NCBI GenBank assembly: GCA_052148445.1
Contig: JBKQIH010000018.1
Span: forward strand, 1 to 33,081
Length of the DNA stretch: 33,081 nucleotides
Direction: 5' to 3'
Origin: Rhodomicrobium sp.
GTDB lineage: Bacteria; Pseudomonadota; Alphaproteobacteria; Rhizobiales; Rhodomicrobiaceae
Both the position numbers and the translations under genes were made by a program. Below are positions 281 to 29,868 of this stretch, piece by piece; positions within the stretch are counted from its first letter, which is position 1, and each line of letters starts with the position of its first letter. The notes below the pieces were generated by a model. It was not told the DNA's origin. It saw only the letters and a list, made by a program, of their open reading frames with translations, and did no database searches.

Positions 281-1003
281 TCAGATCGAAGTCGTCAGTT
301 TTGTCAGCCATTCCGGCGAGTTGCCGAGAAGCCAAGTTTCTGCCAGCTTGTCGTAGCCCGTAAGGATCGCGCCGCCCAGCACGATGAGAGCCGCGCCCAT
401 GGCGAGCCGCAAGCCGCGCCCGGCAGTCATTAATTTCCCCCGAAATTTCAGAGCCGCCTCGCGCGACAGCATACCCAGCGTCAAGAGCGGCAAGGCAGCG
501 CCGGCGCCGAAAAGGATCATCACGAGTGCAACCTCACCGAGATGCTGTCCTTCACTAGCCAGCACCGATGCGGCGCCAAGCGTTGGCCCGGCGCATGGGC
601 TCCAGACGGCGCCGAGCAAAAGCCCGGCGCTGAACTGCCCGGAAATTCCGGTGGCCGGGGAAGCGCCGAAGCGGTTTGCGGCCCAGCTTCCGAAGGGGCT
701 TGCAGCGACAGAGAATTTTTCCGATAAGCTTGGCACGGCTAGCACGAAACCCATGCCGGCGAGAAGAATGGCCGCGATATTTCTGAACACATCGGCGTCA
801 AGCCCGATGGCAAATCCCAAGGTGGCGACGAATAGCCCAATCGCAGTGAAGGAAAGCGCCAGGCCTGCCGCAAGCGCAACCGGTGCCAGCCGGTGCTCGG
901 ATGCTGCGGAGGCAAGCACGACCGGCAGCAGCGGCAGAACGCAGGGCGAGAGCGTCGATAACGCTCCAGCGGCGAAGGACAAACCGAGGGTCGCAGCGCT
1001 CAT
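281..1003 (-). CDS. ccdA: Cytochrome c-type biogenesis / thiol:disulfide electron-transfer membrane protein, CcdA (DsbD-beta) family
   Basis: 240-aa polytopic membrane protein with the two CcdA Cys motifs LSPCVLPLLP (TM1) and AVWSPCAGPTLG (TM4). Starts 4 nt after the stop of the upstream thioredoxin gene. Confidence 0.85.
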   Translation of the reverse strand: MSAATLGLSFAAGALSTLSPCVLPLLPVVLASAASEHRLAPVALAAGLALSFTAIGLFVATLGFAIGLDADVFRNIAAILLAGMGFVLAVPSLSEKFSVAASPFGSWAANRFGASPATGISGQFSAGLLLGAVWSPCAGPTLGAASVLASEGQHLGEVALVMILFGAGAALPLLTLGMLSREAALKFRGKLMTAGRGLRLAMGAALIVLGGAILTGYDKLAETWLLGNSPEWLTKLTTSI

Positions 1004-1007
1004 GGGA

Positions 1008-1400
1008 TCACAGGCTCTTGGCTAGGAGAGCTTCGATCGAGGCCTTGTTCGTGTCGCCAACAGAACGGCCAGCCTCGGCCTGACCTTTGAACACGATCAG
1101 CGTGCTCTGCCTTTGCGCGTTGAACATCCGCAGTGCGTCCTTCTGGTTGTCGAAATCGACGGAGAACACTTGCAGGCCCTTGAACCTTGGCTCGGCGATA
1201 AGCTCGCTCAGTATCGGCGCTTGCGCCTTGCAGGTTGGGCACCAGGGCGCGGTGATGTCGACGAGGATGGGCGCGCCGGCCTTCTGCGCCGCTTCGAACC
1301 CGGCTTGCGTGAAGGGAACCCGCCCGCCGGCCGTGGCTAAGCTGGCGATCAGGCATGCAGCGAAGGCGAGCGGGAAAATAGCGCGTTTTAAGTTACTCAT
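1008..1400 (-). CDS. Secreted (periplasmic) thioredoxin-family protein
   Basis: ATG at 1398-1400 preceded by GGAGGA (1411-1416). N-terminal signal peptide MSNLKRAIFPLAFAACLIASLATAGG. WCPTCK active-site motif. Trimmed from the 248-aa listed ORF to the internal Met, which has a Shine-Dalgarno sequence. Confidence 0.85.
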   Translation of the reverse strand: MSNLKRAIFPLAFAACLIASLATAGGRVPFTQAGFEAAQKAGAPILVDITAPWCPTCKAQAPILSELIAEPRFKGLQVFSVDFDNQKDALRMFNAQRQSTLIVFKGQAEAGRSVGDTNKASIEALLAKSL

Positions 1401-1441
1401 CTTGTTTCCTCCGGTTAGGTCTAAGACAGTCAATTTACGTA

Positions 1442-2086
1442 TTACCAGCGCAACCAACGCCGGCCCGCGATCATCCCCGCGAGCGTCACAAGGCCCATTG
1501 CGGCTGTGTACCAAATGGCGCCGAACAAGGGCGAGTCGTCCGGGCAGTGCATGGCGTAAAGGGTGGCAGCCAGCGCGCTCGCGAGCAGTCCCGCCGCGGC
1601 ACCTGCCAAACCGGGCTGCAGAGGAGCGCCGCGGCGAAGCGCATAAAGGGCAGCGGCAAGCGGCGCAAGCGATAGAAACGAAATGCTCACAACGCACATT
1701 AGGGAATTTTCGCCGATGGCGCGCGGAAGCCAGCCGTTTTGCGGAACGGCCCAAAGCTCGTAGAAGACCGCACCCGCCAGCAACAGCGGACCGATGAGCA
1801 AGGCAAGCTCCGCGGAGCGGGCATCAACGGCCGGCCGGGCAAGTCGCCAAACGAGTCTTGCGGATGTCACGGCCAAGGTGATCGTCATCACAAACTTGAA
1901 GTCAAAGCGCCAGCCATCGACCGCGGTAGCCACGTCGGGACGGACTCCGAGTGTCAGCGCGAAAGCAGCGACGGCAACACCAAACCCCGCCGCCATGGCG
2001 GTGAAAAAGGTCCGGCGAAGCGGAACCGGCTGCGGGCGCGCCGCGTGGTCTTGGGTCAACGCGTGGATCAGATCGCCCGTTCTCAT
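1442..2086 (-). CDS. nrsF: Anti-sigma factor, DUF1109 / NrsF family (negative regulator of sigma F), six-TM membrane protein
   Basis: 214-aa hydrophobic protein. ATGA overlap (2083-2086) with the upstream ECF sigma gene. Two Cys in predicted periplasmic loops (residues 131 and 181 of the translated ORF, ...SLMCVV... and ...AMHCPDDSP...), as described for NrsF. Confidence 0.75.
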   Translation of the reverse strand: MRTGDLIHALTQDHAARPQPVPLRRTFFTAMAAGFGVAVAAFALTLGVRPDVATAVDGWRFDFKFVMTITLAVTSARLVWRLARPAVDARSAELALLIGPLLLAGAVFYELWAVPQNGWLPRAIGENSLMCVVSISFLSLAPLAAALYALRRGAPLQPGLAGAAAGLLASALAATLYAMHCPDDSPLFGAIWYTAAMGLVTLAGMIAGRRWLRW

Positions 2087-2634
2087 TGCTCACCGCTCCT
2101 ATAGGCCGCCGCCAAGGCGCCGAGGCCCCTGTGCAAGGCAACCCGCGTTGCGCCTTCGGAAATGCCAAACCTCGCCGAGGCCTCCTGAATGCTTGCGCCT
2201 TCAACGCATATGGCTTGCACAATCTCCCGCTGCCGGCCGCCGAGTATGGACAAAAGCCGCTCGGTCTCGCGCGGCGATAGTTCCTCCGCGGCGGCGCCGG
2301 CCGGCAGAACCTCGATAAAGTCTTCGATGGGCAGCTCCGTGCGATTTCCCCGCCGCCGCAAATTGTCGATCAGCTTGTTGCGCGCGATGGCCCGCACCCA
2401 AGGGGTGACCGGCTGGTCCGCATCCCAGGTCTGACGTTTCAAATGAATGGCCAGCAGAGTTTCCTGCACCACGTCTTCCACTTCGCTGCCGCTCGAACCG
2501 GCTCTCGCAAATCCTTGGCGCGCAAGCTTGCGCAAGAAGGGCGTCAATGCCTCAAGCAGAAGCCGGTAGGCTCCGCTTTCGCCGGCATTGGCAGCCCGCA
2601 TCCAATCGGCCCATTGGGCTTCGTCGCTGCGCAC
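2083..2634 (-). CDS. sigF: ECF RNA polymerase sigma factor (sigma-70 family, SigF-type)
   Basis: 183 aa with sigma-70 region 2 and region 4 (..IQEASARFGISEGATRVALHRGL..). GTG start at 2632-2634 with GGAG 9 nt upstream. Translationally coupled to the DUF1109 anti-sigma gene. Confidence 0.85.
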   Translation of the reverse strand: MRSDEAQWADWMRAANAGESGAYRLLLEALTPFLRKLARQGFARAGSSGSEVEDVVQETLLAIHLKRQTWDADQPVTPWVRAIARNKLIDNLRRRGNRTELPIEDFIEVLPAGAAAEELSPRETERLLSILGGRQREIVQAICVEGASIQEASARFGISEGATRVALHRGLGALAAAYRSGEQ

Positions 2635-2657
2635 GCGCTTGCTGCTCCATACCCTTA

Positions 2658-2683
2658 TTACGTTGCAAACTGCCGTCTGTTAC
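2658..2683 (-). promoter_or_regulatory. Candidate ECF (SigF-type) promoter for sigF-nrsF autoregulation: GTAAC-N16-CGTAA
   Basis: Minus-strand motif GTAACAGACGGCAGTTTGCAACGTAA lies 24 nt upstream of the sigF GTG. Resembles the GTAACC-N16-CGAA consensus reported for Caulobacter sigma F. Confidence 0.4.
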
Positions 2684-2717
2684 AGGCGGGCGCCCCGCTC
2701 ACTACTCCGTGACCGCT

Positions 2718-2744
2718 GTAACGCAAAAGCCTTCGCTTGCGTAA
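2718..2744 (+). promoter_or_regulatory. Candidate ECF (SigF-type) promoter for the divergent DUF2282-DUF692 operon: GTAAC-N17-CGTAA
   Basis: Plus-strand GTAACGCAAAAGCCTTCGCTTGCGTAA, about 50 nt upstream of the bufA-like ATG. Near mirror image of the sigF promoter across the divergent intergenic region. Confidence 0.45.
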
Positions 2745-2795
2745 TGCCCGATGTGAGCCTTTGTGGGCTCTTTGTACAAAATGGAGTCAATACGC

Positions 2796-3092
2796 ATGAG
2801 CAACCGGAACTTCAACGCGGTCCTCGCCAGCGCCTTCACCGCCGCCCTGGCGCTTGCCTCGGTCCCCGCACTGGCAGATGACGGCGCCACCAAGGAGAAG
2901 TGCTACGGAATTGCAACCGCGGGTCATAACGATTGCGCGTCGGCGGCGAACAATTCCTGCGCCGGCACGGCCAAGGCTAATTACGAAAACGGAGCTTGGC
3001 TGTTCGTGCCCAAAGGCACTTGCCTTACCACCGCGGTAACGCTGAAGAACGGCACGAAGCGCAACGGATCGCTCGAACCGGTGAAGGGTTGA
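2796..3092 (+). CDS. bufA: DUF2282-family secreted Cys-containing peptide; bufferin-type RiPP precursor (BufA-like)
   Basis: ATG at 2796 with GGAG 9 nt upstream (listed ORF begins at an upstream GTG at 2763). Sec signal peptide [27 protein letters not shown]. Core [43 protein letters not shown] with the four conserved Cys of DUF2282. Confidence 0.8.
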
Positions 3093-3106
3093 CGGGAGAA
3101 CGCCTC

Positions 3107-3748
3107 ATGCTCGCCGTGCAACCAGCCGGAAAGCGCACGCTCACCTCGATCCCGGCGCGGGCCGGGATCGGGTTCAAACCGGCACACATGCAGGATATGA
3201 TGGAACGTCCGCCGGACGTTGGCTGGTTCGAGGTTCATGCCGAGAACTATATGGGCGCGGGCGGGATGCCGCACCGCCAGCTCGAACGGGTGCGCAAACG
3301 TTATCCGCTTTCCGTGCACGGCGTTGGGCTTTCGATTGGCGGCGCGGGCTGGCTCGACCGGAATCATCTGAGCCGCCTCAAAATACTTATCGATCGCTAT
3401 GAGCCTGAGCTTTTTTCCGAGCACCTTGCCTGGTCTACGCATGATGGCGCCTACCTCAACGATCTTCTGCCGCTTCCCTATACAGAGGAAACGCTTGCGC
3501 ATTTGTCGGTGCATGTGGACGAGGTGCAAACGGCACTCGGCCGGCAAATCCTGATCGAGAACCCGTCAACCTACGTCTCCTTTGAATCGAACGAGATGAG
3601 CGAAGCCGAATTTCTAACCGGGCTTGCGCGCCGGACCGGCTGCGGGCTGCTTCTCGACGTGAACAACGTCTACGTTTCCGCCGTGAACCACGGTTTCGAT
3701 GCGGAAGCCTATATCGATGGATTCCCTGCGAAGCCGCGACCGGCATAG
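3107..3748 (+). pseudogene. bufB: DUF692 / MbnB-like multinuclear non-heme iron enzyme (BufB-like), N-terminal about 75%, interrupted by a stop at 3746-3748
   Basis: ATG at 3107 with GGGAG 9 nt upstream, 14 nt after the bufA stop. Strong DUF692 similarity ([33 protein letters not shown] ... [28 protein letters not shown]). Frame ends at ...KPRPA*, before the expected xxIHLAGH iron-ligand block. Confidence 0.55.
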
Positions 3749-3759
3749 AGGGTTTCTCC

Positions 3760-4122
3760 GCCTTTGCTCCGGAGGATTGGTCTTCCTTGCGATTTCTGCC
3801 GCATACTTCGGCGATATGGCTCGACTTCGTCACAAACGCCGCGGACATCTGGAGCGCTCTGAAACGCGAGGCCGAGCCGCCGGCGGTGGAGAAGAGCGGG
3901 CAGCACCGCATTTTGATCTGGCGCCAGGATGTGCCGAAGTTCCGGGTGCTGCAAGAGGAGGAAGCCATGCTGTGGAATGAGGCGGCACGCGGCGTCCGCT
4001 TCGGCGTGCTCTGCGAAATGGCTGCCGCCCACGACGATCCGGACCAGGCTGCGGCGCGCGCCGCCGGCTATTTGCAAGGCTGGATCGCATCGGGCTTGCT
4101 TGCCGGCGCAAGCCTTGGCTGA
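3760..4122 (+). pseudogene. Out-of-frame continuation: DUF692 C-terminal block, then a short remnant resembling the N-terminus of a DUF2063 (BufC-like) protein
   Basis: The +1 frame relative to bufB (open from 3586) reads ...IWLDFVTNAADIWSALKREAEPPAVEKSGQHRILIWRQDVPKFRVLQEEEA. This resembles the ...D..VW.LY...FG.vPTLIEWDxDVP...VL.EE C-terminus of DUF692. The following MLWNEAARGVRFGVLCEMAAAHDDPD resembles a DUF2063 start. The frame ends at 4122, 70 bp from the convergent mdlC stop. Confidence 0.4.
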
Positions 4123-4194
4123 AGCCTTAAAAGCTACTGCACGCCCGCACCATACCAGAGGGAACCCCAATCATCGATGCGTCGGACACCATGG

Positions 4195-5844
4195 CTATTG
4201 GCCGCCGTGTGCCTCAGAGATGGGCGGAACGAGCGGCCTCAGCTGGCGCTTGACGGGGATCACGATGACCGTGGGGCCGTCCGTTTCCAGTGCCTTCGAG
4301 AACGCCCGCTTTATCTCTTCCTTTGTGGGTGCCTCGACTGCGGCGCAGCCGAACCCCTTCGCTGTGGAGACAATGTCCAACGGGGGAAGATCGAGGCCAG
4401 GTACGTTGGGAGTGTTCTCAAGCTCGGCGAACTCCTTCAGAATTGCATATTCACCGTTGCACGGAATGATATAGATCACCTTGAGCTTTTGCTGCGCGGC
4501 GGTGGCGAGGCACTGCACGGAGTACTGCAGGGATCCGTCGCCGATCATGGCTATGACCGGCCTGCCTGTGCCCAGCTTTTTCTGCGCCAGTGCGATGCCA
4601 ACAGCTGCCGGTGCATTCCAACCAAGCCCGCCGCTGGCAAAGGTGTAGTAGGAAGCCGGCTGAATCGTGGGCCACCACATCGCCAAATCCATCGCATTCG
4701 AGGGCGACTCCTGGACGACGATGGCATTGTCCGGCCTCAGTTCGCTCAACGCGGCGTAAACCTCACTAGCGGTCAGTGGCGAGTTGGGCGGCGAGGGAAG
4801 AGTCCGCGGAAGGCGCAGAGGTGGTGGCGCGTTGCGCGATGAGCCGTCTTCGACCAGCGCCAGCAAGGCCTCAAGTGTGAGCTTGGCATCACCAAGCAGG
4901 CTGTCTCCTACCAGCGCACTGCCGGCATCGCTGGGATCGTTTGTAACCTGCAGCAGCTCGCAGCCCGGCGGTAACACAGGCCCCGAAACATATGGATAGT
5001 AACGGAAAACGGGTGCGCCGATCACCACCGCTAACTCGAAGCCCTTGAGCCGTTCACTCAATGGCCCCATGGCAATCGGGAGCATGCCCTGAAACAACGG
5101 GTGCGTCTCCGGAAAGGACGGGCGTTCGGTATTCGGGGCATGAAACACAGGCGCGTTAAGCCTTTCGGCGAGTGCAACGCCAGCGTCCCAACCGCCACTC
5201 CGGTCGATCTCCTGGCCATAGACAAGGGCCAGCCTTTTCGCCGTGGAGATACGCTTGGCAAATTCACGGGCGCGATCCCCATCTGGCGCGAAGCGGGTAC
5301 TCACTGTTCGAACGGCCGAGGGGCCTAGCGCGGGCTTGTCCAAGTCATCCAGCGGGATTGAGACGTACACTGGACCGGCAGGCGGCTGCAACGCCAAGGC
5401 GTACGCACGCATGAGGGCGCCTGGCACATCCTGAGCTCGCGCCGGCTGATAGGCCCACTTCACATAGGGGCGCGGCAGCATCGTTTCGTCGCGGTTCGTC
5501 AGCAGAGGATCGCACAAAATCATCTCGCGCGTCTGCTGGCCGGCTGTGATGATCAACGGCGTCTTGTTGAGGAAGGCCGTCATGATGTTGCCCATGCCGT
5601 TGCCGGTACCGGCCGATGTGTGCAGGCTCACAAGCGCAGGACTGCGCGTGGCTTGAGCAAATCCATCCGCCATTGCAACGACTGAGGCCTCTTGCAGGCC
5701 CAGAATGTATTGAAAATCAGTAGGAAAGTTCTTTAAGAATGGCTGTTCGGTAGAACCAGGATTGCCAAAGACCGTAGTCAAGCCCAAAGACCGCAGAAGA
5801 TCGTAGGTTGCCGCCCAGACGGTTTGTGATTTCTCAGTCTCCAT
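4195..5844 (-). CDS. mdlC: Benzoylformate decarboxylase-like thiamine-diphosphate enzyme
   Basis: 550 aa from ATG at 5842-5844 (AAGGAG 7 nt upstream). Near-collinear similarity to Pseudomonas putida MdlC (..TVFGNPGSTEQPFLKNFP..LHTSAGTGNGMGN..PRPYVKWAYQP..GDGS..NNG..). Listed ORF trimmed by 24 codons. Confidence 0.8.
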   Translation of the reverse strand: METEKSQTVWAATYDLLRSLGLTTVFGNPGSTEQPFLKNFPTDFQYILGLQEASVVAMADGFAQATRSPALVSLHTSAGTGNGMGNIMTAFLNKTPLIITAGQQTREMILCDPLLTNRDETMLPRPYVKWAYQPARAQDVPGALMRAYALALQPPAGPVYVSIPLDDLDKPALGPSAVRTVSTRFAPDGDRAREFAKRISTAKRLALVYGQEIDRSGGWDAGVALAERLNAPVFHAPNTERPSFPETHPLFQGMLPIAMGPLSERLKGFELAVVIGAPVFRYYPYVSGPVLPPGCELLQVTNDPSDAGSALVGDSLLGDAKLTLEALLALVEDGSSRNAPPPLRLPRTLPSPPNSPLTASEVYAALSELRPDNAIVVQESPSNAMDLAMWWPTIQPASYYTFASGGLGWNAPAAVGIALAQKKLGTGRPVIAMIGDGSLQYSVQCLATAAQQKLKVIYIIPCNGEYAILKEFAELENTPNVPGLDLPPLDIVSTAKGFGCAAVEAPTKEEIKRAFSKALETDGPTVIVIPVKRQLRPLVPPISEAHGGQ

Positions 5845-6154
5845 ATCGTCAGCTCCTTTCTCAGAGCCGCCGTGCAGGAACGCGGTATCAACTTCGCCGC
5901 ACTGGATATGATGCAACGGCCCATCGCCGTTAGATAATTGGCTGATAGGAAAGTGGTTCCTCGCCGCTCAGCAGAGAAATCTGTTCGAACCGAGGGGCGT
6001 TATCTCGATGCAGACCGGCGCGCATCGGCCTTGCCGCTGAAGCCAGCAACCGGAAAATCCGGTTCGGCGAGGCGATTTGTGCACTCGGTTCGCCGATTCA
6101 CTATCGTTTCATGCAGGGTTATTGTCTGCGTCATCCTCTGCATGTAGCCAACAA

Positions 6155-6841
6155 TCAATATTTTCCGATAGGCGCCAAAATTCTCCTCTCGCTCACATTT
6201 GCCTCGAGGTCTCGCGCTACCGCACACAACTCGTCCGCCGTCTCTGGCAGTTGCGCTTGCGCCTTCAGGACCGCAATATTAGCGAGGCCGCGTATTTCAA
6301 CCGTCGAGACGCCGCGCAAGCCGAGCAGACAAGCTGGCCGCTGCATCGGCGTTGGCGCTGGCGCGTCCGGGCAGCGCTCCTTCTGACGAGCCAGCGCTGC
6401 CAGCGTCTTAAAGTCGGTTCCATATTTGGGATCGTTCTGCCGGCCTTCGAGCAGCGGATTGCCGAAGCCGATCATTGGCTTTTCGGTGGCACCCGCATGC
6501 ACCACTCGTCGTAGCGTCTTCTGCGCGGAGACGGCTGGCAGGATCGTGAGCGCGCGAGCGCCGATAAGCCGAGCGGCCGACGTGTTATCGCCGCCCGCGT
6601 GCGGCGCTAGCAGCACTTGGAACGGCAATTGCGTCAACGGACCGGAGGGGACAATGAGCAACTGCTTGCCCGGGGATAAGGGCTCTGCCGAACAGCCCCC
6701 AATAAAGCTTGTGCGCCGCGCAAGCTCGAAAGGCAGCGGTTTACCAGCATCCAGGTCTGCGCGGGTGTGATTTTGGCCGAAGAATTCTGCACAACGCTGT
6801 CCGTTCCAGGCATCGGCCTTCGCGAAAGGAGATGCTCTTTC
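6155..6841 (-). pseudogene. CHAT (caspase-like) domain, N-terminal half only; in frame with and directly downstream of the patatin gene stop; lacks catalytic His/Cys region
   Basis: Same reading frame as 6842-9619 with no stop between the TGA at 6842-6844 and 6155 (229 codons). Translation ...FELARRTSFIGGCSAEPLSPGKQLLIVPSGPLTQLPFQVLL...ALTILPAVSAQ...MIGFGNPLLEG...LPETADELCAVARDL matches the opening conserved blocks of CHAT domains. Terminates before the His and Cys blocks, and no frame in 5845-6155 supplies them. Confidence 0.45.
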
Positions 6842-9619
6842 TCATCGTTTTTGGCATGCCAGCGTACCGCCATGTTGGTCATCTTGCAGCAGTGAAAGAA
6901 CGCAATTCCGCTCCGCCAAGTTATTCTGCGAATAAAGCTGCCCATCGAGATAAGCCTGTAAAGGTGGAGATAGCCACCAACTAAGAGCTACACTTTTATA
7001 GACGATTTGCTTTTTCATGCTCATCATCATTCCGTGCATTTTTTCTTCCGGCTTCATCGTGTTGCCGGTGTAAGTTCTAATAAAGTCCCCAAAGCTCTCC
7101 TGTGGTTGGGGACAGACATGAATTTGGGCTGACGAAGGGATGCCCCCGTTCACTTGTGCTGCATGTTGCGGCAGTTCCAAAATCGTCCCGTATCCGCGCG
7201 CAACCCGCGTCGACATGACCGTGAGGGGGTCTGGCAACGAACCCATGGGCCTGAAGTTGTCTGTGTCCGGAATTTGGGGAGTGGCAGGGAACATAGCCTG
7301 CATGGAGCAGTCGCTCGACGCCTCAAACCAAGATGGCTCGCTTGAGACATGTATTATAAAAGGCAAAAGCCTCCGGTCCAAAGCCTTGATGGCGCGCGCG
7401 ATATCGAGGGCCGTCACGATCCCTGAATTATCGAAATAACCGCCATCGACGACGCTATCGGTGAGTTGAGACCGCCGGTCTCTGACATTAGCATGGGGAC
7501 TCACGAAGGGTGAGCGTGCACTTACGCTCGCCGCAGTGCTCAGGCGGACATCGATAGTAACAGGCTTCCTGTCTTTGCACTTCGTAACTGGGGTAAAGAA
7601 TGACGGTATGAGAGCGGCCGCCCACTGAAGCGGGCTAACGGATGGATAGGTATGGCTCATAGGATCGTAGTATGGGGCGCAGAGAAGTTCATGAAAATCA
7701 TATGTATCCGGGAAGAGCATGCTCCTGCCCGTGCCTAAGGGGTCGGCAATCTTTACCGGCGTTAAGATCACGCGCCGGCCGGTACCGATAGAGGTGGCAT
7801 TCAGGAACAACAGAGGCGTCCAGCTATCTGGGCTAGGCGCCACCATCTGCAAAGGCCCGGATAAGGGTGAGGTTTTCCTTGACGTTCCGTAGACATCGTC
7901 AAACGCATCCTCCCACGCCATTTCGAGGACCCCGGCGCGATCCATGACATGCGGTACCATAGATACCAGAGAGACGTCTCGCGCGAAGTATGCCGTCAGT
8001 ACCGGTGAAACAAAGTCGTTCGATAACGCCGCCTGCAGAGTGTCCTTATAGGTGACATCATCAGTCAGAAAATCGGGCTTCATCGCGCTATTATCTTTCC
8101 CGTCTGCGGTCATGACGCCCGGCTTCGCGGTGGCCAGGTTACGGAACCATAGTCTTTGCCTGTAGAGTGCTTTCCTGAGGCTCGCCGCGCTTTGCTTGGG
8201 CTGTGCTTTCAGGGCACTGACAAAAAACGCCGCTCCGACGGAACCGCCGGAGACACCGGATATGGCGAAAAGCTGCCGGTGAAACTGCCGGCCACCCGGG
8301 TTTATGCGCGGGTCCAGACTGTCGTCTTCAAGCGATCCGAGTAAGCTTGCCAGGAGGAATGCGGCGCGGCTGCCGCCGCCCTCGGCGGCAACGAGGATCG
8401 GACGAGGGCAGCTTGCGAGTTCGGGCCCGCCCGGTGAAAACTGCTCGCACCCTTTCGCATTCCAGCCGCTGGCAGCCTTCCAATCCTTAAGTGCTTCCGC
8501 AAAAGTAACGGGCTTCAAGGCTGCCTGCTGTTCGCTGGATAATTTGGCGATGCGCACATCGTGGCCATCGCCAACGAACAACGAAACGAGAACGCCTCCA
8601 GCGAAGAAGGAAAGAATGAACGGAAACTGGCGGCGTTTGGATAGAAGGGCCAAAATCGTGATGAAAGGCACCCAAGCCCCAAACAAAACGAGCAGCAACG
8701 GGGCGCGGTTTAGAGAAAGGGAATCGGCTATAAAATGCCACGCGGCGTGCAGCTTAGAATAAGAGGACATATCTGGTATAGCAAACAAACCGCTCAGAAT
8801 ATCCGAATAGGATAGGAAATGGATCGCAACAAGGATTGCCAATATTCCGCTGAGACAGCACATATACACCCACATGGAGAGTTCAGCCCGCTGGGCTTCA
8901 ACCCACATCGCTTCCGTAAGGAATTCAGGCTTCGGCCCAGTCAGGCGGAGACTCCTCCCGTCTTGGTTTCGACCAGGCTTGCCCATGAGATTCTCAATGT
9001 GGGTTAGCGATTTTTGCAGAGCCCCTGGCTTGCTGCGCTCAATAGCCTCCATCCGCCGTCTGTAATAACTGATGAATACATTGCGCATCATGATCGCAAT
9101 GATGACGCAGACTGTTGCAACACACAGCGCTATCAAATGGAATGTCAATAACTTCCTAAGAACCAACTCGTGCGCGTTGCCATTCATTGGCATCGGAAGG
9201 GTTCCAGATGCCGAAACCATGCCAGATAATACCGCGACAAAAGCGAAGAGCGCAAAAAAACGAGGAAAAACAAAAATATAGAATTTGAATCGTTTCTCGC
9301 TATCGATACCGATCGAGGCGAAATGCTGGAGCAGCAGCAGGCGTGCTGCAAAGACGAGCGGAAGCGCCCAAACGAAAATGCCAATCAGATAGAAGAAGCT
9401 CCAGTAAAGGGCCTCCTGAACCCAATATGGCCGGGCATCCAGCAAAACATCTTGAACTTGAGGTAACGCCGTAAAAGCGTATAGCGCAACCAGCACGCTC
9501 AGAACGCTGATGAATGAAATTCCCAGAGCGCGAAGAAAGAGCCGCGCTGCTGAGATACGATGGGGAGCGGCTACCGGCTCCGCGGCGGCGCCGTTCAAGA
9601 TATCTTGTTCAGTGCTCAT
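6842..9619 (-). CDS. Multi-pass membrane protein with C-terminal patatin-like phospholipase domain
   Basis: 925 aa from ATG at 9617-9619 (GGAGG 10 nt upstream). About 9 predicted TM helices in the first roughly 350 aa. Patatin blocks GGGSRA (nt about 8366-8380), GVSGG (nt about 8243-8257) and catalytic DGG (nt about 7443-7451). Lower GC than flanking genes. Confidence 0.8.
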   Translation of the reverse strand: MSTEQDILNGAAAEPVAAPHRISAARLFLRALGISFISVLSVLVALYAFTALPQVQDVLLDARPYWVQEALYWSFFYLIGIFVWALPLVFAARLLLLQHFASIGIDSEKRFKFYIFVFPRFFALFAFVAVLSGMVSASGTLPMPMNGNAHELVLRKLLTFHLIALCVATVCVIIAIMMRNVFISYYRRRMEAIERSKPGALQKSLTHIENLMGKPGRNQDGRSLRLTGPKPEFLTEAMWVEAQRAELSMWVYMCCLSGILAILVAIHFLSYSDILSGLFAIPDMSSYSKLHAAWHFIADSLSLNRAPLLLVLFGAWVPFITILALLSKRRQFPFILSFFAGGVLVSLFVGDGHDVRIAKLSSEQQAALKPVTFAEALKDWKAASGWNAKGCEQFSPGGPELASCPRPILVAAEGGGSRAAFLLASLLGSLEDDSLDPRINPGGRQFHRQLFAISGVSGGSVGAAFFVSALKAQPKQSAASLRKALYRQRLWFRNLATAKPGVMTADGKDNSAMKPDFLTDDVTYKDTLQAALSNDFVSPVLTAYFARDVSLVSMVPHVMDRAGVLEMAWEDAFDDVYGTSRKTSPLSGPLQMVAPSPDSWTPLLFLNATSIGTGRRVILTPVKIADPLGTGRSMLFPDTYDFHELLCAPYYDPMSHTYPSVSPLQWAAALIPSFFTPVTKCKDRKPVTIDVRLSTAASVSARSPFVSPHANVRDRRSQLTDSVVDGGYFDNSGIVTALDIARAIKALDRRLLPFIIHVSSEPSWFEASSDCSMQAMFPATPQIPDTDNFRPMGSLPDPLTVMSTRVARGYGTILELPQHAAQVNGGIPSSAQIHVCPQPQESFGDFIRTYTGNTMKPEEKMHGMMMSMKKQIVYKSVALSWWLSPPLQAYLDGQLYSQNNLAERNCVLSLLQDDQHGGTLACQKR

Positions 9620-10599
9620 GACCGAAGTGCCTCCGCACAAGATCTCACAGGGATTGTCACAGTTGCTGCAGAATCCTTCACGGCGAAAACCGTCTAAGCC
9701 AAAGCCATCTCAGCAAATTAGGGCAATGATTCCGCCTAACTGCGTCCTGTTTCAGCAAGTCATACTCGATCTTGTTTTTGCAAGTGAAAACACTTTGCAA
9801 AATCCGCCGGTCACAATCCCGTTACGTTGGCACATAAGAGAAGCCTGGCATTCTCAAGCAAGGAGAGTTCGAGGGACGTGTGTGATGAGTGGCTCAACCA
9901 CAACCGCAGGGATATTGTTTGGTCGCGCGTTATAGCGCTCCAGCTTTGCTTACGCGATAGCGGCCCGCGGATCCGCGAGCAGAAACTCTGAGCTTGGATT
10001 GGGCGCTTGGGCAAGTCCCGTGCCGGTCTGCCTAACCCCTTTGAAGACCGTATATCTGCAGAGGCGTAGCTCCGGAATTCAGGCGAATGGCGGCGGTTTC
10101 CGCGCCTCTCATTGCGCCTGCGACTTTCGGGCATGCTGATGCCAATTTGTTCGATAGCGCGACCGTGTGGGGAGCGCGAGGGCGATGCGTTTTTCTGGCT
10201 TTGCTTTGGGCGATTACGGCTTGGACGGTGGTGCTTTCAGGGGACGCGGCCTTCGCAGATAAGCCTTCGGCTAAGGTTGTCCCGCAATTAGGACATTCCA
10301 TCAAACCGTGCGCTTCGCCGGCACCGCATGAGCTTTGATGTACAGCATTCCGGAAGCAGTATGTCTTCCTTTCGCTTTTACCACGTTCTGAAATTCCTAT
10401 GTTGGGCCGTTGTAGCGCAAATCTAGATCTTATATCATTTAATTGTGCAATTTGGTACAATATCAGTAAACCACGTACTGCCATAGAGCGCGCAAAAATG
10501 GATTGTTAATTGGTACCGGTATGACTAGGCGCCGCAAAGTCAGGCTTACGAGGGGATTTGATAGGACGAATTTTCAAACAATAGACGGAGATACTTCTG

Positions 10600-11694
10600 A
10601 TGGGGTCAGATCCATTGGTCGCACGCATACCAAAAGATGGTTTGCCTCCCGTGCCGCAGGAGGTGGTGCAACCCTTGACACGCGCAGCAATTTTTCTGGC
10701 CGTGACCGTGAACCCAGGTGCCGCCGCTCGCCGGATTGTCCGGGCATTCTGCGGGGACGTTCCCGCGCTCCTTCGCGCTGTGGGTTTCCGCGATATTGAG
10801 GGTAACCTTTCCTGCGTGATGGGTTTTGGGTCCGATGTATGGGATGAACTCTTTGGCTCGCTGCGGCCTGCTGAACTCCATCCGTTCCGCGAACTCCGCG
10901 CCGGGCCCCGCCACGCAGTCTCTACGCCCGGCGATCTTTTCTTCCACATCCGCGCCAAACGCATGGACCTCTGCTTCGAACTGGCGACCCAGATTATGAA
11001 GCGGCTCGGACACGCAGTGACGCCCGTGGATGAAGTGCACGGCTTCAGATATTTCGATGACCGCGATCTGATCGGCTTTGTCGATGGAACGGAGAATCCA
11101 ACGGGTCAAAGCGCTATCGACGCGGCGTATGTCGGCCTGGAGGACGCCGCATTCGCGGGAGGCAGTTATGTGGTGGTCCAAAAGTACCTCCACGATCTGG
11201 CCGGCTGGGACTCGCTAACCACCGAAGCCCAGGAAGGCATCATCGGCCGCAAAAAGCTGTCCGATATAGAACTCGACGATGCCGTTAAGCCAGCGTGTGC
11301 CCATAACGCGCTGGCCACAATCGTGGAGAACGGAAAAGAGATCAAGATCTTACGCGACAACATGCCCTTCGGCAACGCCGCGCAAGGTGAATTCGGCACC
11401 TATTTCATCGGCTACGCGCGCTCGCCTCGAACCATCGAGCAGATGCTGGTGAACATGTTCATCGGCCGTCCCCCCGGCAACTACGACCGGTTGCTGGATT
11501 TCAGCCGGGCTGTAAGCGGCAGTCTCTTCTTCGTCCCGTCCGCGACGTTCCTGGAGAACGCGGGTGAAGGTGAGCCCCCGGCAGCTGCGGAGCTTCCCGG
11601 CGAACCCATCGATACCCCCTCGCAAACAAATGCGCCGGTGCGCGATGGTTCGCTTGGCATAGGCTCCCTCAAAGGAGACCCCTCTCATGAATAA
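10600..11694 (+). CDS. Dye-decolorizing (DyP-type) heme peroxidase with C-terminal encapsulin targeting peptide
   Basis: 364 aa. GFVDGTENP DyP signature. C-terminal ...DGSLGIGSLKGDPSHE matches the SxGSLxIGSLKG cargo-loading peptide. Stop overlaps the encapsulin start. Confidence 0.9.
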   Translation: MGSDPLVARIPKDGLPPVPQEVVQPLTRAAIFLAVTVNPGAAARRIVRAFCGDVPALLRAVGFRDIEGNLSCVMGFGSDVWDELFGSLRPAELHPFRELRAGPRHAVSTPGDLFFHIRAKRMDLCFELATQIMKRLGHAVTPVDEVHGFRYFDDRDLIGFVDGTENPTGQSAIDAAYVGLEDAAFAGGSYVVVQKYLHDLAGWDSLTTEAQEGIIGRKKLSDIELDDAVKPACAHNALATIVENGKEIKILRDNMPFGNAAQGEFGTYFIGYARSPRTIEQMLVNMFIGRPPGNYDRLLDFSRAVSGSLFFVPSATFLENAGEGEPPAAAELPGEPIDTPSQTNAPVRDGSLGIGSLKGDPSHE

Positions 11695-12487
11695 CCTTCA
11701 CCGTGAGCTTGCCCCAATCTCCGATGCGGCGTGGGCTCAGATCGAGGCGGAGACGTCGCGCACCTTTAAGCGCTACCTCGCCGGGCGGCGCGTCGTGGAC
11801 GTGCAAGGACCGGCCGGGGTCGCGCTGCCGGCCATGGGCACGGGGCACCTGCGCAACGTCGAGGCACCAGGAGACGGTGTCCTTGCGCGGCAGCGTGAGG
11901 TGAAAGCGCTCGTCGAATTGCGCGTACCGTTCGATCTCGACCGGCAGCAGATCGATGATGTGGAGCGCGGAGCGAACGATTCGGACTGGCAGCCCGCGAA
12001 GGATGCCGCGCGGCGGCTCGCCTTTGTAGAAGATCGGGCCATCTTCGATGGCAGCGCTGCCGCCGGCATCCAAGGCATCCGCCAGGGGACCAGCAATCCG
12101 GTGATGACGCTTCCGGCTGACGTGCGCGAGTACCCCGGCGCCATCGCCCAAGCCGTTAGCAAGTTGCGTCTCGCCGGCGTCGACGGGCCCTACTCCGTGC
12201 TGCTAAGTGCCGATGCCTATACTGGGCTCAGCGAGGCCAAGGACCACGGATATCCGGTGCTGGAGCACGTCAAGCGCTTGGTGGACGGCAAAATCGTATG
12301 GGCGCCGGCAATCGCGGGTGCATTCGTGCTCACCACCCGCGGCGGCGATTTCGCCTTGTACATCGGCCAGGACGTATCAATTGGCTATTTAAGCCATACG
12401 GATGCAGCCGTCCGCCTATACCTTCAGGAGACATTTACCTTCCTTTTACTCACGGCAGAGGCTTGCGTTGTCTTGGCGCCCTCGTGA
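11687..12487 (+). CDS. Family 1 encapsulin nanocompartment shell protein (HK97 fold, linocin M18-like)
   Basis: 266 aa. Canonical N-terminus MNNLHRELAPISDAAWAQIEAE. 8-nt overlap with the DyP stop. Confidence 0.9.
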   Translation: MNNLHRELAPISDAAWAQIEAETSRTFKRYLAGRRVVDVQGPAGVALPAMGTGHLRNVEAPGDGVLARQREVKALVELRVPFDLDRQQIDDVERGANDSDWQPAKDAARRLAFVEDRAIFDGSAAAGIQGIRQGTSNPVMTLPADVREYPGAIAQAVSKLRLAGVDGPYSVLLSADAYTGLSEAKDHGYPVLEHVKRLVDGKIVWAPAIAGAFVLTTRGGDFALYIGQDVSIGYLSHTDAAVRLYLQETFTFLLLTAEACVVLAPS

Positions 12488-17360: not shown

Positions 17361-18470
17361 ATGAGCATCACCGCGTTTCCCTTTAAAAACAACGTCCCCG
17401 ACCCGCTCCTCGATGGAAAGGAGCTTCCTACGTTCAAATTCGCCTTGGAACAGTCGCGCGGCAAGGTCATGGATGGAAGCTTCGGCAAGGAAGCGACCGT
17501 CGCCCAATTACCGATCGCCAAGGGCATCGCCGGCGTCTCGATGCGTCTAGAACCTGGCGTGACGCGGGAACTCCACTGGCACGCGACCGCCGCGGAGTGG
17601 GCTTTTGTCCTGGAAGGCCGAGTGCGCACCACCGTCGTGGATCCGCTTGGCCGGTCGGAGATCAATGAGTTCGAGCCCGGCGACGTCTGGTATTTTCCTC
17701 GCGGTTATCCGCACGCGCTCTCTTGCCTCGGTGACAAACCGTGTCATTTCATACTGATTTTCGATAACGGCTATTTTTCCGAGTTCGGAACTTTCAGCAT
17801 CACCGATTGGCTTGGCCACGCATCGAAACCGCTGTTGGCCAAGAATTTTGGGGTATCCGAGGCGGTCTTCGAGGGTTTGTCAAACGAAGAAGCTTACTTT
17901 GTCCGCGGCCCGATCCCTCCCGGGCAGGCGATGCCGCTTCAGGGCGTGGAGAATACGCCGCCAGCAACCCACAAGTACCGGCTCCTGGCGCAGGAGCCCC
18001 ATTCGATCCACAAAGCCGGCCGTGAATGGCGCGTCGGTGCGAACCGCTTCCCCGTTTCTCAAACGATCACCGGTGTCGTCCTCGACCTCGATCCGGGCGG
18101 CCTCCGCGAATTACACTGGCATCCGAATGCCGACGAATGGCAGTACGCGATTGCCGGCGATTTCAGCGTCACGATGTTCGGCTCGCATGGCCGCTACCGG
18201 ACCGAGACGCTTGGCAAAGGTGACGTCGCCTACATCCCGCAGGGTTACGGCCATTCCATCGAAAACATCGGTAGCAAAGCCGGCCGGATGCTGATCGGCT
18301 TCAACACCGGGGATTACCAAGCGATTGACCTATCCCAATGGTTGGCGGGCAATCCGCCCTATCTGCTTGCGGATCATTTTGGCAAACCAGCGGCGGTCTT
18401 CGAAAAGTTCCCGAAGGAGCGGGTGTTCATCGCTCCGCCGGACGGGCATGGGCTGCGCGATATCAAATAG
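17361..18470 (+). CDS. Bicupin Mn-dependent oxalate decarboxylase family protein
   Basis: 369 aa with two cupin modules, each carrying ELHWH...EW ([14 protein letters not shown] and [14 protein letters not shown]). Lid segment FSEFGTF is comparable to the SENST lid of OxdC and retains the Glu. Confidence 0.85.
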
Positions 18471-26772: not shown

Positions 26773-27168
26773 TCAGCGCTGCATATGCATCATTTGATAC
26801 ATCGGGAGCATGTTTTGATTTAGGTGATCCATGATCCAGAGCGAGCCAAGCACGATCAGGCCAACAATCAACAATCCGAAGGCCAGTGCGAGTACGTTGT
26901 TCGTATTATCCGGTGCTGTCGTGATATGCAGAAAGAAGACGAGGTGAATCCCCATTTGCGCGATGGCGAGCACCACGAGTGCGATTGGGATTCCAGGCCC
27001 CCAAATCTCGTGAGTACGGGCCACGTAGAATGAGGCCGCCGTGAGCAGAACGGCCAGCCCGAGCCCTATAAGATACCCTTGCACTTCACCCCAGATATCG
27101 CTGCGATCGATTGCACCTGGCGGGACATCGCCGAAGTTCTCGTCAAAGCCGTCGCGTTGTTCGCTCAT
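26773..27168 (-). CDS. cyoD: Cytochrome bo3 ubiquinol oxidase subunit IV
   Basis: 131 aa from ATG 27166-27168, overlapping the cyoC stop (ATGA). Three TM helices. Listed ORF trimmed by 50 codons. Confidence 0.85.
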   Translation of the reverse strand: MSEQRDGFDENFGDVPPGAIDRSDIWGEVQGYLIGLGLAVLLTAASFYVARTHEIWGPGIPIALVVLAIAQMGIHLVFFLHITTAPDNTNNVLALAFGLLIVGLIVLGSLWIMDHLNQNMLPMYQMMHMQR

Positions 27169-27857
27169 CTCGCTACACTCATCAGATAGACGATGGTGAA
27201 TATGGCAACCCAGATAATATCGAGCGTGTGCCAAAACAGGTTGAAGCACAGCAGCCGATGCAGAATGGAAGTGCGGAAGCCCTTCACGTAAACCTGGGCC
27301 ATCATGGTCCCCAGCCATAGAAGTCCCACGCTGACGTGTGTGCCGTGCAGGCCGACCAGGGCGAAGAAAGATGAGAGGAAGGCGCTATGGGTGGGCCCTG
27401 CACCCCGCCCGATAAGGCCAGCGAATTCTTGCAGCTCCAACAAAACGAAGCCTAGCCCGAAAAGACCTGTCACCAGTAGGAAGATCTGGGTCCAAAAATG
27501 ATTGCGGGCAGTGGCTGCCACAGCGGCCATTCCGCAAAAGAAGCTCGATGCGAGGAGCAGTGCCGTCTCCGTTGCAACCCGCCAAGTCTCGAACAAATCC
27601 GCTCCCGAAGGCCCTCCCGCGGTCGAATTACGCAACACGGCGAAAGCCGCGAAAAAGCAGGAAAACATGATGATATCGCTGAGAAGAAAGATCCAAAACC
27701 CGTATCCGGTGATGACGCGGGCGGAGGCCGGGCCACCTTCCCCGTGGCCTGTTGCGTGATCGTGGCCGTCCCCGCCGCCTTCGCCGCGCCTGCGGCCGAG
27801 CTTATAAGGATCGCTGAATGGCCGCTCTGGCCGGGCAAAAGCTTCGGTGGTGCTCAT
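27165..27857 (-). CDS. cyoC: Cytochrome bo3 ubiquinol oxidase subunit III
   Basis: 230 aa with His/Gly-rich N-terminus followed by [17 protein letters not shown], typical of CyoC. Confidence 0.9.
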
Positions 27858-29866
27858 GCGAACTCACCCGTGCTTGCGTTCTCGTCAAGCCACTGCTGCC
27901 GGGCTTGGCGCCCGGCGCGGTCCTGGCGCGCTACCTCCTCGGCCGGGATTTCGTATTCCACGTCATCTCGCCACGCATACCAGACGAAAATGGCATACGC
28001 CGCGGCGAGGCCGGCTATCGCAAGCCACCAGATATGCCAAATCATTGCAAAGCCGGTGAGAGTTGCGAAGAAGGCAGTGATGAAACCGGTGGGGCTATTC
28101 CGCGGCATGTGAAGCGGCTTGTAATCGGGTTCACTCACCAAATGCTGCGTCTCAATCGCGCGCCGCTTGATATCCACATAGGGTTCGGCGCCCCGCACAT
28201 TGGGCAAGACGGCGAAGTTGAAGGCAGGCGGAGGCGACGCGGTGGACCATTCCAGCGAGCGCCCGTTCCACGGGTCGCCAGTAGTATCGCGAAGCTCATC
28301 GCGGCGGCGGATGCTGACGACAAGCTGGACCACCTGGCATACGGCACCGCAAAGTAGAACAACGATTCCAAAACCGGCCGCTAGGACCCAGGGTTGCCAG
28401 AGGTCGAAGTCGTAACGCTGCAGGCGCCGGGTCATGCCCAAGAGACCTGCCGCATAGAGCGGCATGAAGGTGACATAGAAGCCGGCGAACGCGAACCAGA
28501 AAGAGGCCTTGCCCCAGCCCTCGTGCAACTTGAAGCCGAACGCTTTCGGGAACCAATAAGTTATGCCGGCAAAGGCAGCGAACACTACAGCGCCAATGAT
28601 AACGTTATGAAAGTGGGCTACGAGAAACAGGCTTTCGTGCAACTGAAAGTCGGCTGGCGGTACCGCGAGAAGCACACCAGTCATGCCGCCGATCACGAAT
28701 GTAACGATGAATCCAATCGACCAAAGCATAGGCGTCGCAAACTGAATGCGGCCGCCATACATGGTAAAGATCCAATTATAGACTTTCACCCCGGTTCCCA
28801 CCGCAATGATGCTGCTTGCGATACCGAAGATGGCGTTGACGTCTCCCCCCGCTCCCATTGTAAAGAAGTGATGCAACCAAACCGTGAAAGAGACTATGCA
28901 GATGAATAAGGTTGCAACCACCATCGAGCGATAGCCAAATAAGGGTTTGCGGGAAAAGGTGGAGATCACTTCCGAGAAAATGCCGAACGCGGGCAGAACG
29001 AGAATATAGACTTCGGGATGTCCCCACGCCCAGATCAAGTTGATGAACATCATCATATTGCCGCCGGCCGTATTCGTGAAAAAATGAAAGTCGAGATAGC
29101 GGTCGAGAATAAGCATCGCGAGCGTGGCCGTTAGGACCGGAAATGCCGCGACGATGAGCATATTGGCGGCGAGAGCGGTCCAGCAGAAGATGGGCATCCG
29201 CAGATAGCTCATCCCGGGGGCGCGCATTTTGAGGATAGTCGTAACGAAATTGATGCCCGTCACCAATGTTCCGACGCCGGAGATTTGCAGCGCCCACAGG
29301 TAATAATCCACCCCCACACCGGGAGAGTATTCAGCCTCCGATAATGGCGGATAGGGGAGCCATCCCACGCGTGAGAATTCGCCCACGACGAGCGATATGT
29401 TCACAAGCAGAGCGCCGGATGCGGTAAGCCAGAAACTCACCGAGTTCCACGCCGGGAAAGCGACGTCGCGCACGCCAAGCTGCAGGGGCACCACCAAATT
29501 CATGAGCCCGATCATGAACGGCATCGCCGCAAAGAAAATCATAATCGTGCCGTGGGCGGAGAAGATTTGATCGTAATGTTCCGGTGGGAGATAGCCGGGT
29601 GCGTGAAAGGCAAGCGCTTGCTGCGACCGCATCATGATCGCGTCGATGAAGCCGCGCAGCAGCATGACGAGCCCAAGCAGGCAATACATGACGCCGATGC
29701 GCTTGTGATCGACGCTTGTGATCCACTCATTCCAAAGATAGGGGAAGTGGCCCTTCAAGATGATCCATACGATCACCGCGAGGAGAATTACCATCACCGC
29801 TGCGCCGGCGATGAGAGGGATCGGCTGTTCCCAAGGGATTGCGTTCCAGGTGAGCTTGCCAAACAT
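27854..29866 (-). CDS. cyoB: Cytochrome bo3 ubiquinol oxidase subunit I (heme-copper oxidase)
   Basis: 670 aa. [16 protein letters not shown] start. Conserved heme-copper oxidase His ligands. Confidence 0.95.
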
Positions 29867-29868
29867 GT

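Follow-up and report, generated by a model that had tools for sequence, protein, structure and literature searches.

A deletion in a bufferin locus has left a precursor gene and its SigF/NrsF-type regulator beside fragments of two maturation genes in the 33,081-bp contig JBKQIH010000018.1 of the Rhodomicrobium sp. metagenome-assembled genome (MAG) GCA_052148445.1; the whole contig is referred to here as the window. Comparison with related loci indicates that a single deletion of approximately 3.2 to 3.5 kb, running across two tandem bufferin operons (buf1 and buf2), very probably fused the 5' two-thirds of the MNIO maturase gene bufB1 to the 3' half of bufC2, the partner gene of the second operon. 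The most fitting name for the region is a bufferin cluster remnant that carries an orphan BufA1 gene; it is not a bufferin biosynthetic gene cluster (BGC), since it lacks two defining features, a full-length MNIO enzyme and a DUF2063 partner. An earlier interpretation made from the letters of the window (hereafter the sequence-only reading) had proposed that the regulator and precursor were kept while the maturation machinery was lost, giving a snapshot of BGC loss, and our profile scans and homology map agree. The anatomy that it proposed, a frameshifted DUF692 gene followed by the start of a DUF2063 gene, is replaced by a deletion across two bufferin operons, the second of which had not been suspected.

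The truncated MNIO/DUF692 maturase gene, bufB1' (3107 to 3748, plus strand), matches PF05114 over profile positions 2 to 192 of 263. A tblastn search of the whole window with BufB1 from one relative, locus L002, placed residues 1 to 209 of the query at 3107 to 3733 with 77.5% identity. Codons 1 to 209 of bufB1' are thus authentic, and they are followed by four out-of-frame codons (PRPA) and a TAG stop codon at 3746 to 3748. The NCBIfam model MNIO_BufB (NF050167) is covered from position 1 to 191 of 262 with a score of 299.8 bits, below its curated cutoff of 310. Of the columns conserved at 97% or more in 116 homologues, 24 fall in the lost portion, among them the EIHLAG, LIDAHD and PTLIEWDNDIP blocks, and no HLAG block is encoded in any frame. 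Profile coverage and the position of the TAG codon therefore bear out the earlier observation that the DUF692 frame ends before the HLAG block, and the reported absence of an HLAGH segment between 3745 and 3790 likewise holds. The full-length MNIO maturase of a bufferin-1 BGC is consequently missing.

The adjoining sequence, 3730 to 4122 on the plus strand, is the 3' half of the second-operon DUF2063-family partner gene ('bufC2), as identified by tblastn, BLASTP and an alignment with full-length BufC2 proteins (alignment A1), in which the window fragment covers the C-terminal half only. The final 130 codons of bufC2 remain, through the native stop codon: residues 133 to 261 of the 262-residue L002 BufC2 map to 3730 to 4116, in a frame other than that of bufB1, with 76% identity (E = 2e-62, tblastn). 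The longest open reading frame (ORF) within the remnant runs from a TTG at 3787 to 4122, and its 111-aa product is 78% identical to BufC2 residues 152 to 261 (E = 1e-53, BLASTP). The same product yielded only a six-residue chance match to full-length BufB1 (E = 1.9, BLASTP) and no similarity to BufC1 (E = 16, BLASTP). The absence of any Pfam or NCBIfam match for the 'bufC2 ORF is explained by the loss of the DUF2063 domain, which occupies residues 10 to 102 of L002 BufC2, and PF09836 (DUF2063) matched none of the window ORFs tested. AlphaFold2 modeling of the 130-aa remnant from a 14-sequence alignment gave a mean predicted local distance difference test score of 58 and a predicted template modeling score of 0.42, too poor for a fold search, and a profile built from alignment A1 found no match among PDB sequences at E values up to 1.

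The other L002 proteins among the nine used as queries show what the window lacks. BufC1, DoxX and BufA2 returned no tblastn match in its 33 kb, and BufB2 matched the bufB1' fragment only, at 49% identity. The locus thus has neither the DUF2063 partner nor the DoxX gene of a bufferin-1 BGC, the latter absence having already been recognized from the sequence, and the window does not contain a BufA2 precursor with its own MNIO gene, as expected of a bufferin-2 BGC. The stop codon of a convergent thiamine pyrophosphate (TPP)-dependent enzyme gene (4195 to 5916) lies 72 bp past 4122, in keeping with the distance of about 70 bp given previously.

These results bear directly on an alternative whereby a single frameshift or indel near 3745 splits a DUF692 gene, whose C-terminus resumes in the +1 frame ahead of a DUF2063 start of some 50 codons. 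The premature end of the MNIO ORF and the shift of the downstream conserved sequence into another frame (frame 1 versus frame 2) are what such an event would produce. However, the downstream ORF is unlike MNIO C-termini, has no PF05114 match and over its full length aligns with BufC2, in the C-terminal half of that protein. The segment HRILIWRQDVP..VLQEE, taken in the sequence-only reading for the DUF692 C-terminus, is in fact the BufC2 tail, and the codons interpreted as the beginning of a DUF2063 gene likewise fall within BufC2 residues 133 to 261. The EIHLAG, LIDAHD and PTLIEWDNDIP blocks are missing from all frames, whereas an MNIO gene that is truly frameshifted (in the relative L092) retains PF05114 in both of its halves. 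No single-base correction can restore the HLAG block, because the sequence encoding it is absent, and six assemblies concur on the sequence. The junction being common to six contigs, the suggestion that a sequencing indel accounts for the locus also fails, and we give the frameshift explanation practically no credence.

The relatives examined comprise 80 related loci, the closest GTDB representative genomes being those of uncultured Rhodomicrobium-like alphaproteobacteria; BufB1 is at most 79% identical to its counterparts in the nearest genomes of the GTDB representative set. In L002, nrsF-sigF is divergent from the series bufA1-bufB1 (297 aa)-bufC1 (DUF2063)-doxX-bufA2 (6-Cys)-bufB2-bufC2. 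Pfam and NCBIfam recognize two MNIO proteins (both full length), two DUF2063 proteins and a DoxX protein in this cluster, while the 6-Cys protein scores 80.5 bits against Cu_RiPP_BufA2 (curated cutoff 60); BufB1 and BufB2 are only 49% identical. The full nine-gene order is common to L001 to L004, L008 and L010, and is partial on L005, L023 and L091, which stop at a contig edge. Relative to these loci, the window lacks the last ~85 codons of bufB1, bufC1, doxX, a third promoter motif, bufA2, bufB2 and the initial 132 codons of bufC2 with the entire DUF2063 domain. The missing interval corresponds to approximately 6625 to 9829 in L002 coordinates (~3.2 kb) and reaches 3.5 kb in other relatives. 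Given that the order is shared across relatives, the ancestor of the window lineage most parsimoniously possessed it as well; a bufC2 tail immediately after a bufB1 head would otherwise be hard to explain, which also points to an ancestor with the tandem order.

Nucleotide comparison with six relatives places the deletion junction, where homology to bufB1 gives way to homology to bufC2, at 3727 to 3733. The bufB1 homology ends at approximately 3727 to 3729 and that of bufC2 begins at approximately 3730, such that about 0 to 3 bases are unassigned; by blastn, window positions 3098 to 3714 correspond to L002 5991 to 6608, and 3730 to 4117 to L002 9830 to 10216. Microhomology at the junction amounts to a few bases at most, around GAAGC. 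This near-zero homology argues for joining at the level of microhomology and against recombination between paralogous genes. The proposed course of events begins with an ancestor carrying the nine genes under three sigma-F-type promoters (for sigF, bufA1 and bufA2), in which illegitimate recombination or replication slippage would have joined bufB1 at codon ~209 to bufC2 at codon ~133, the two frames differing. As the fusion is out of frame, bufB1' reads its four foreign codons and then stops. Left over would be the sigF-nrsF(-trx-ccdA) unit, both divergent sigma-F promoters and an intact bufA1.

An artefactual origin of the junction also has to be weighed, as the window is a metagenome-assembled contig and the relatives' locus holds paralogous gene pairs, between which a chimera or a collapse during assembly might have arisen. 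Against this, the positions joined (bufB1 codon 209 and bufC2 codon 133) are not homologous to each other, BufB1 and BufB2 share only 49% identity, and the same junction recurs elsewhere. An exact-protein look-up found BufA1, the 213-aa MNIO fragment and the 111-aa ORF in the same arrangement on five other contigs, with the TPP enzyme gene next to them wherever the contig extends far enough. These sister contigs comprise a 61.5-kb contig of MAG GCA_052147345.1, one contig each from the NCBI assemblies GCA_052916165.1, GCA_052916025.1 and GCA_052916085.1 (presumably whole-metagenome assemblies, judged by their contig numbering), and one from the Logan assembly of SRR31840465. All five match the window at 99.7 to 99.9% identity, each with single-nucleotide polymorphisms (SNPs) of its own, so they represent independent samplings of one population; a 1-bp gap in L084 at window position 4028, 17 bp from the contig end, was set aside as an end artefact. 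In a collection of 5.8 billion protein clusters, sequences with at least 80% identity to the bufB1' fragment consisted of four variants, all of 213 aa, and the next matches were full-length proteins at 79% or less. No intact bufB1 allele of this species was found at 80% identity or above in those clusters. An assembly chimera is thus extremely improbable as the source of the junction, and for practical purposes a sequencing indel or a chimera is excluded. The deletion is fixed among the members of this Rhodomicrobium population that were sampled. A megablast search of 1400 to 4300 against plasmids returned a single irrelevant match (71%).

The fragments on either side of the junction are nearly undecayed. 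bufB1' keeps 78 of 79 highly conserved MNIO positions, the exception being V133L, at positions where intact MNIO homologues show a mean of 0.6 deviations; 'bufC2 keeps all 42 positions that are invariant in other BufC2 proteins. Set against the ~25% divergence from the relatives, the deletion is therefore young. In the 61.5-kb MAG contig, bufB1' carries N47Y at an asparagine invariant in 116 of 116 homologues, which hints at decay having begun inside the population, although it is one sign only. SNPs within the population number two nonsynonymous and no synonymous in bufB1', one synonymous in 'bufC2, and two synonymous and one nonsynonymous (in the signal peptide) in bufA1, counts too few in each case for a selection test.

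Several points weigh against a single recent deletion. The single step, the breakpoint and the microhomology are deduced from relatives only 72 to 79% identical in DNA. Synteny with the relatives is lacking on both sides of the cluster, so that other rearrangements have taken place in the lineage. The undamaged state of the fragments would equally fit continued selection on them. Finally, the evidence on bufBC covers the 33-kb contig, and the putative loss of bufferin function is accordingly a statement at the level of the locus. The same flanks lend some support to a multi-step history in which several smaller deletions or rearrangements built the present junction: both are unlike those of all relatives, and the pair trx-ccdA that follows nrsF is unique to this lineage, showing that rearrangements did occur. 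The junction, however, is a single clean one with no foreign or leftover sequence, and both fragments are otherwise collinear with the relatives and undecayed. We regard a multi-step origin as rather improbable and retain a single deletion as the favored explanation. Flank synteny neither dates nor orients the event, as the L002 flanks are unconserved even among relatives; the genes flanking the cluster in the window (trx, the TPP enzyme gene and ORFs of 168 and 932 aa) are absent from all 80 loci.

The precursor gene bufA1 (2796 to 3092, plus strand) is intact and encodes a 98-aa bufferin-1 precursor of the DUF2282 family (PF10048, E = 3.3e-20; 72.3 bits, cutoff 22.4). Cysteines at positions 36, 47, 55 and 76 make up a 4-Cys core, and the N-terminus, read by eye, is signal-like and ends in ...PALA, so the precursor expected of a bufferin-1 BGC is present. 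Both the PF10048 match and the cysteine count agree with the initial description of a divergent DUF2282 precursor with a signal peptide and four-cysteine core. BufA1 is 68% identical to its L002 counterpart over 107 aa, and the identical 98-aa protein occurs on eight contigs.

A pattern scan for TGTAAC-N15-18-CGTAA revealed exactly two occurrences in the 33 kb (chance expectation 0.01), both within the sigF-bufA1 intergenic region and one on each strand. TGTAACA-N15-CGTAA (2658 to 2684, minus strand) faces sigF, and TGTAACG-N16-CGTAA (2717 to 2744, plus strand) faces bufA1, 52 bp upstream of its ATG. Among the ten relatives in which this intergenic region is sequenced, the sigF-facing motif is kept in position and strand in nine and the bufA1-facing motif in all ten. 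The experimentally defined sigma-F promoter consensus of Caulobacter is GTAACC-N16-CGAA (PMC3511200), which the window motifs resemble, each differing by one base per element; both are putative sigma-F promoters. A scan of 900 to 4400 for terminators and sigma-70 promoters found nothing exceeding the shuffled expectation. In nearly all relatives whose sequence covers the doxX-bufA2 spacer, a third copy of the motif lies just upstream of bufA2; in the form GTAAC-N16-CG(A/T)A it directly follows doxX, for example at L002 8116. Within L002 (5483 to 10222), the buf1 operon (bufA1B1C1-doxX) lies directly upstream of the buf2 operon (6-Cys bufA2, bufB2 and bufC2), and both bufferin types in the relatives appear, from these motifs, to be sigma-F driven from one locus.

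The regulator side of the locus is intact. The sigF-type extracytoplasmic function (ECF) sigma gene (2083 to 2634, minus strand) matches Sigma70_r2, r4_2 and ECF models (PF04542, PF08281); its product scores 249.6 bits against NCBIfam PRK12512, exceeding the cutoff of 198, and is 80.5% identical to the L002 orthologue. It overlaps by ATGA (2083 to 2086) the gene for the DUF1109 anti-sigma-F factor, nrsF (1442 to 2086, minus strand; PF06532, E = 3.4e-54, profile positions 7 to 204 of 204). NrsF has two cysteines in all, at positions 131 and 181, and a protein identical to it is encoded on nine further contigs. The functional cysteines of Caulobacter NrsF, C131 and C181 (PMC3511200), are at the same positions and lie in a periplasmic loop, where the two here may lie as well. 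Against the equivalog model AntiSigF_NrsF the protein scores 97.6 with a strict cutoff of 300; it is a member of the family for which equivalog-level identity is not reached. ECF regions 2 and 4, an overlapping DUF1109 partner and two cysteines together constitute a SigF/NrsF module, and on this point Pfam, NCBIfam and direct reading of the sequence all uphold what had first been described.

Downstream of nrsF on the minus strand follow a thioredoxin-fold gene, trx (1008 to 1400; PF00085, E = 3.4e-13), with a signal-like N-terminus and a WCPTC motif, and a gene for a CcdA/DsbD-type membrane thiol-reductant transporter, ccdA (281 to 1003; PF02683 DsbD_TM, PF13386). The gene trx is a 130-aa gene call in L082 to L090. 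The gaps are 41 bp between nrsF and trx and 4 bp between trx and ccdA, and sigF-nrsF-trx-ccdA is apparently a single transcription unit with ccdA last; trx-ccdA has no sigma-F motif of its own. The pair stands beside nrsF in this lineage only (0 of 80 related loci). In L006 and L009, a DsbD-like gene is placed downstream of doxX instead. Other bacteria use the SigF/NrsF module to control different targets (PMC3511200), and in the window it is followed by trx-ccdA, so retention of sigF-nrsF is unsurprising.

Some relatives differ in ways of their own. In L007 (6827 to 8076), BufC1 and DoxX each match as two pieces that lie in different frames, which could reflect frameshifts caused by long-read assembly errors or independent decay of the same cluster. 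The MNIO gene of L092 is split into ORFs of 220 and 92 aa, both halves of which match PF05114; its 220-aa part (P0079) was considered as an independent case of the same deletion and rejected as an ordinary frameshift. In this more distant relative (L092 2828 to 6886), the position that sigF-nrsF takes in other loci, upstream of bufA1 and on the opposite strand, is occupied by three AhpC/TSA peroxiredoxin genes in tandem. Two further Rhodomicrobium MAGs from the same samples (L093 45 to 6914 and L096 237 to 7106) hold an intact bufB2-bufC2, after which come genes for glycogen phosphorylase, branching enzyme and glucose-1-phosphate adenylyltransferase, which shows how much the sequence to the right of the cluster varies.

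Every part of the locus has its place in a known family, whether from the bufferin clusters buf1 and buf2 or from the SigF/NrsF module. With buf1 of Caulobacter vibrioides (bufA1B1C1D1, CCNA_03363-03366; PMC11626156, PMC3511200), the window shares a divergent sigF-nrsF beside a DUF2282 precursor and an MNIO gene, a GTAAC-N16-CG(T/A)A promoter before sigF and bufA1, and a precursor with a Sec-type signal peptide and 4-Cys core. Unlike Caulobacter buf1, its MNIO gene is without the last ~85 codons, bufC1 and doxX are absent, and nrsF is followed by trx and ccdA. The remnant at 3730 to 4122 derives from a DUF2063 partner of the buf2 type (in Caulobacter bufA2B2C2, CCNA_02999-03001, with Buf_6/12Cys precursors), of which only the last 130 codons are retained. 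The relatives' combination of 6-Cys BufA2, MNIO and DUF2063 proteins without DoxX is the same as in Caulobacter buf2. Whereas Caulobacter buf2 occupies a separate chromosomal site, buf2 in the Rhodomicrobium-like clade comes immediately after buf1 and has a sigma-F-type promoter to itself. In a survey of bufferin genes (PMC12452194), sigma and NrsF genes accompanied BGCs of the Buf1 type but not those of the Buf2 type. The presence of buf1 and buf2 in tandem, with three sigma-F-type promoters, amounts to a modest variation.

Thiooxazole installation in Caulobacter requires both BufB1 and BufC1, which together suffice for it, and can proceed without DoxX; bufferin needs the heterocycles in order to bind copper, and sigma-F controls both buf1 and buf2 (PMC11626156). 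Since both BufB and BufC are required and the locus has no complete MNIO or DUF2063 domain, BufA1 should stay unmodified. Under stress that induces sigma-F (copper, other thiol-reactive metals or oxidants), bufA1 and the two dead fragments would still be transcribed, and BufA1 would be exported via Sec with its cysteines not converted to thiooxazoles, barring a bufBC pair acting in trans.

Such rescue, whereby the deletion is real yet a second bufB/bufC pair or an unrelated MNIO enzyme and partner modifies BufA1, derives some appeal from the intact bufA1, with its signal peptide, four cysteines and sigma-F promoter. A sizeable share of bufferin precursor genes lies away from any MNIO gene (PMC12452194), and precursor recognition in vitro involves the core peptide (PMC11626156). 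The intactness of bufA1 carries no weight, however, given that the plainly dead bufB1' is equally undecayed; apart from the two fragments the 33-kb contig holds no bufB or bufC homologue, and it has no doxX; and the BufB2-like candidates all come from other co-occurring Rhodomicrobium species at 72 to 79% nucleotide identity. Modification in trans is on balance unlikely. The Rhodomicrobium BufB-like proteins P0050, P0147 and P0140 were evaluated as a second pair in the same genome and rejected, being encoded on other MAGs or metagenome contigs with that same range of DNA identity, from species of the same samples whose own clusters are intact. A bolder proposal, which we hold to be highly doubtful, is that the unmodified 4-Cys BufA1 is kept under sigma-F control as a periplasmic thiolate/disulfide buffer for metals or oxidants, reduced by way of trx-CcdA. 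If true, BufA1 would represent a naturally occurring 'de-RiPPed' bufferin, and the many orphan bufferin precursors seen in genomes would have an explanation.

Elsewhere in the window, which ends with the contig, the left end (1 to 275) holds a short ORF that faintly matches a DDE transposase (E = 0.075). The 61.5-kb sister contig continues past the window end (L082 8087 to 12645) to a phage-type integrase gene (L082 10046 to 11335), and the locus therefore adjoins what is probably a mobile or island region. Beyond the TPP enzyme gene, a 168-aa ORF (6155 to 6672, minus strand) gives a weak partial CHAT-domain match (profile positions 28 to 120 of 289) and is possibly a gene fragment; SNPs between sister contigs number two nonsynonymous and one synonymous here, with a 1-bp indel at 6672 just upstream. 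A predicted membrane protein of 932 aa (6842 to 9640, minus strand) has a sub-threshold Patatin match (22.4 bits, cutoff 27.7, residues 420 to 744), which together with its GVSGGS and DGGYFDNSG motifs suggests a patatin-like lipase that is divergent and has a long transmembrane region at its N-terminus. At 10600 to 12487 (plus strand), the genes for a DyP-type peroxidase and a Linocin_M18 encapsulin shell form a classical peroxidase-encapsulin pair, the former gene running into the start of the latter. There follow a bicupin gene (17361 to 18470; Cupin_1 twice), genes for cytochrome bo-type quinol oxidase subunits (26773 to 30810; COX1, COX2, COX4_pro) and a second TPP-dependent enzyme gene (30819 to 32552); the bicupin, the quinol oxidase and the two TPP enzymes may serve oxalate or 2-oxoacid metabolism.

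The locus is a clean example of ordinary gene-cluster loss, and leaves the understanding of bufferins and MNIO enzymes unchanged. The buf1-buf2 supercluster of the relatives would be convenient for studying the co-regulation of both bufferin types, while the window itself presents a SigF/NrsF module that outlives its bufferin targets. Orphan bufferin precursor genes, unlinked to MNIO genes, are reported to be common (PMC12452194), and the window likewise holds a DUF2282 gene without a functional adjacent MNIO/DUF2063 pair. Unlike the surveyed orphans, its origin is visible, with remnants of the MNIO and DUF2063 genes flanking the junction, and the locus thus shows one concrete route by which orphan bufferin precursor genes come about.

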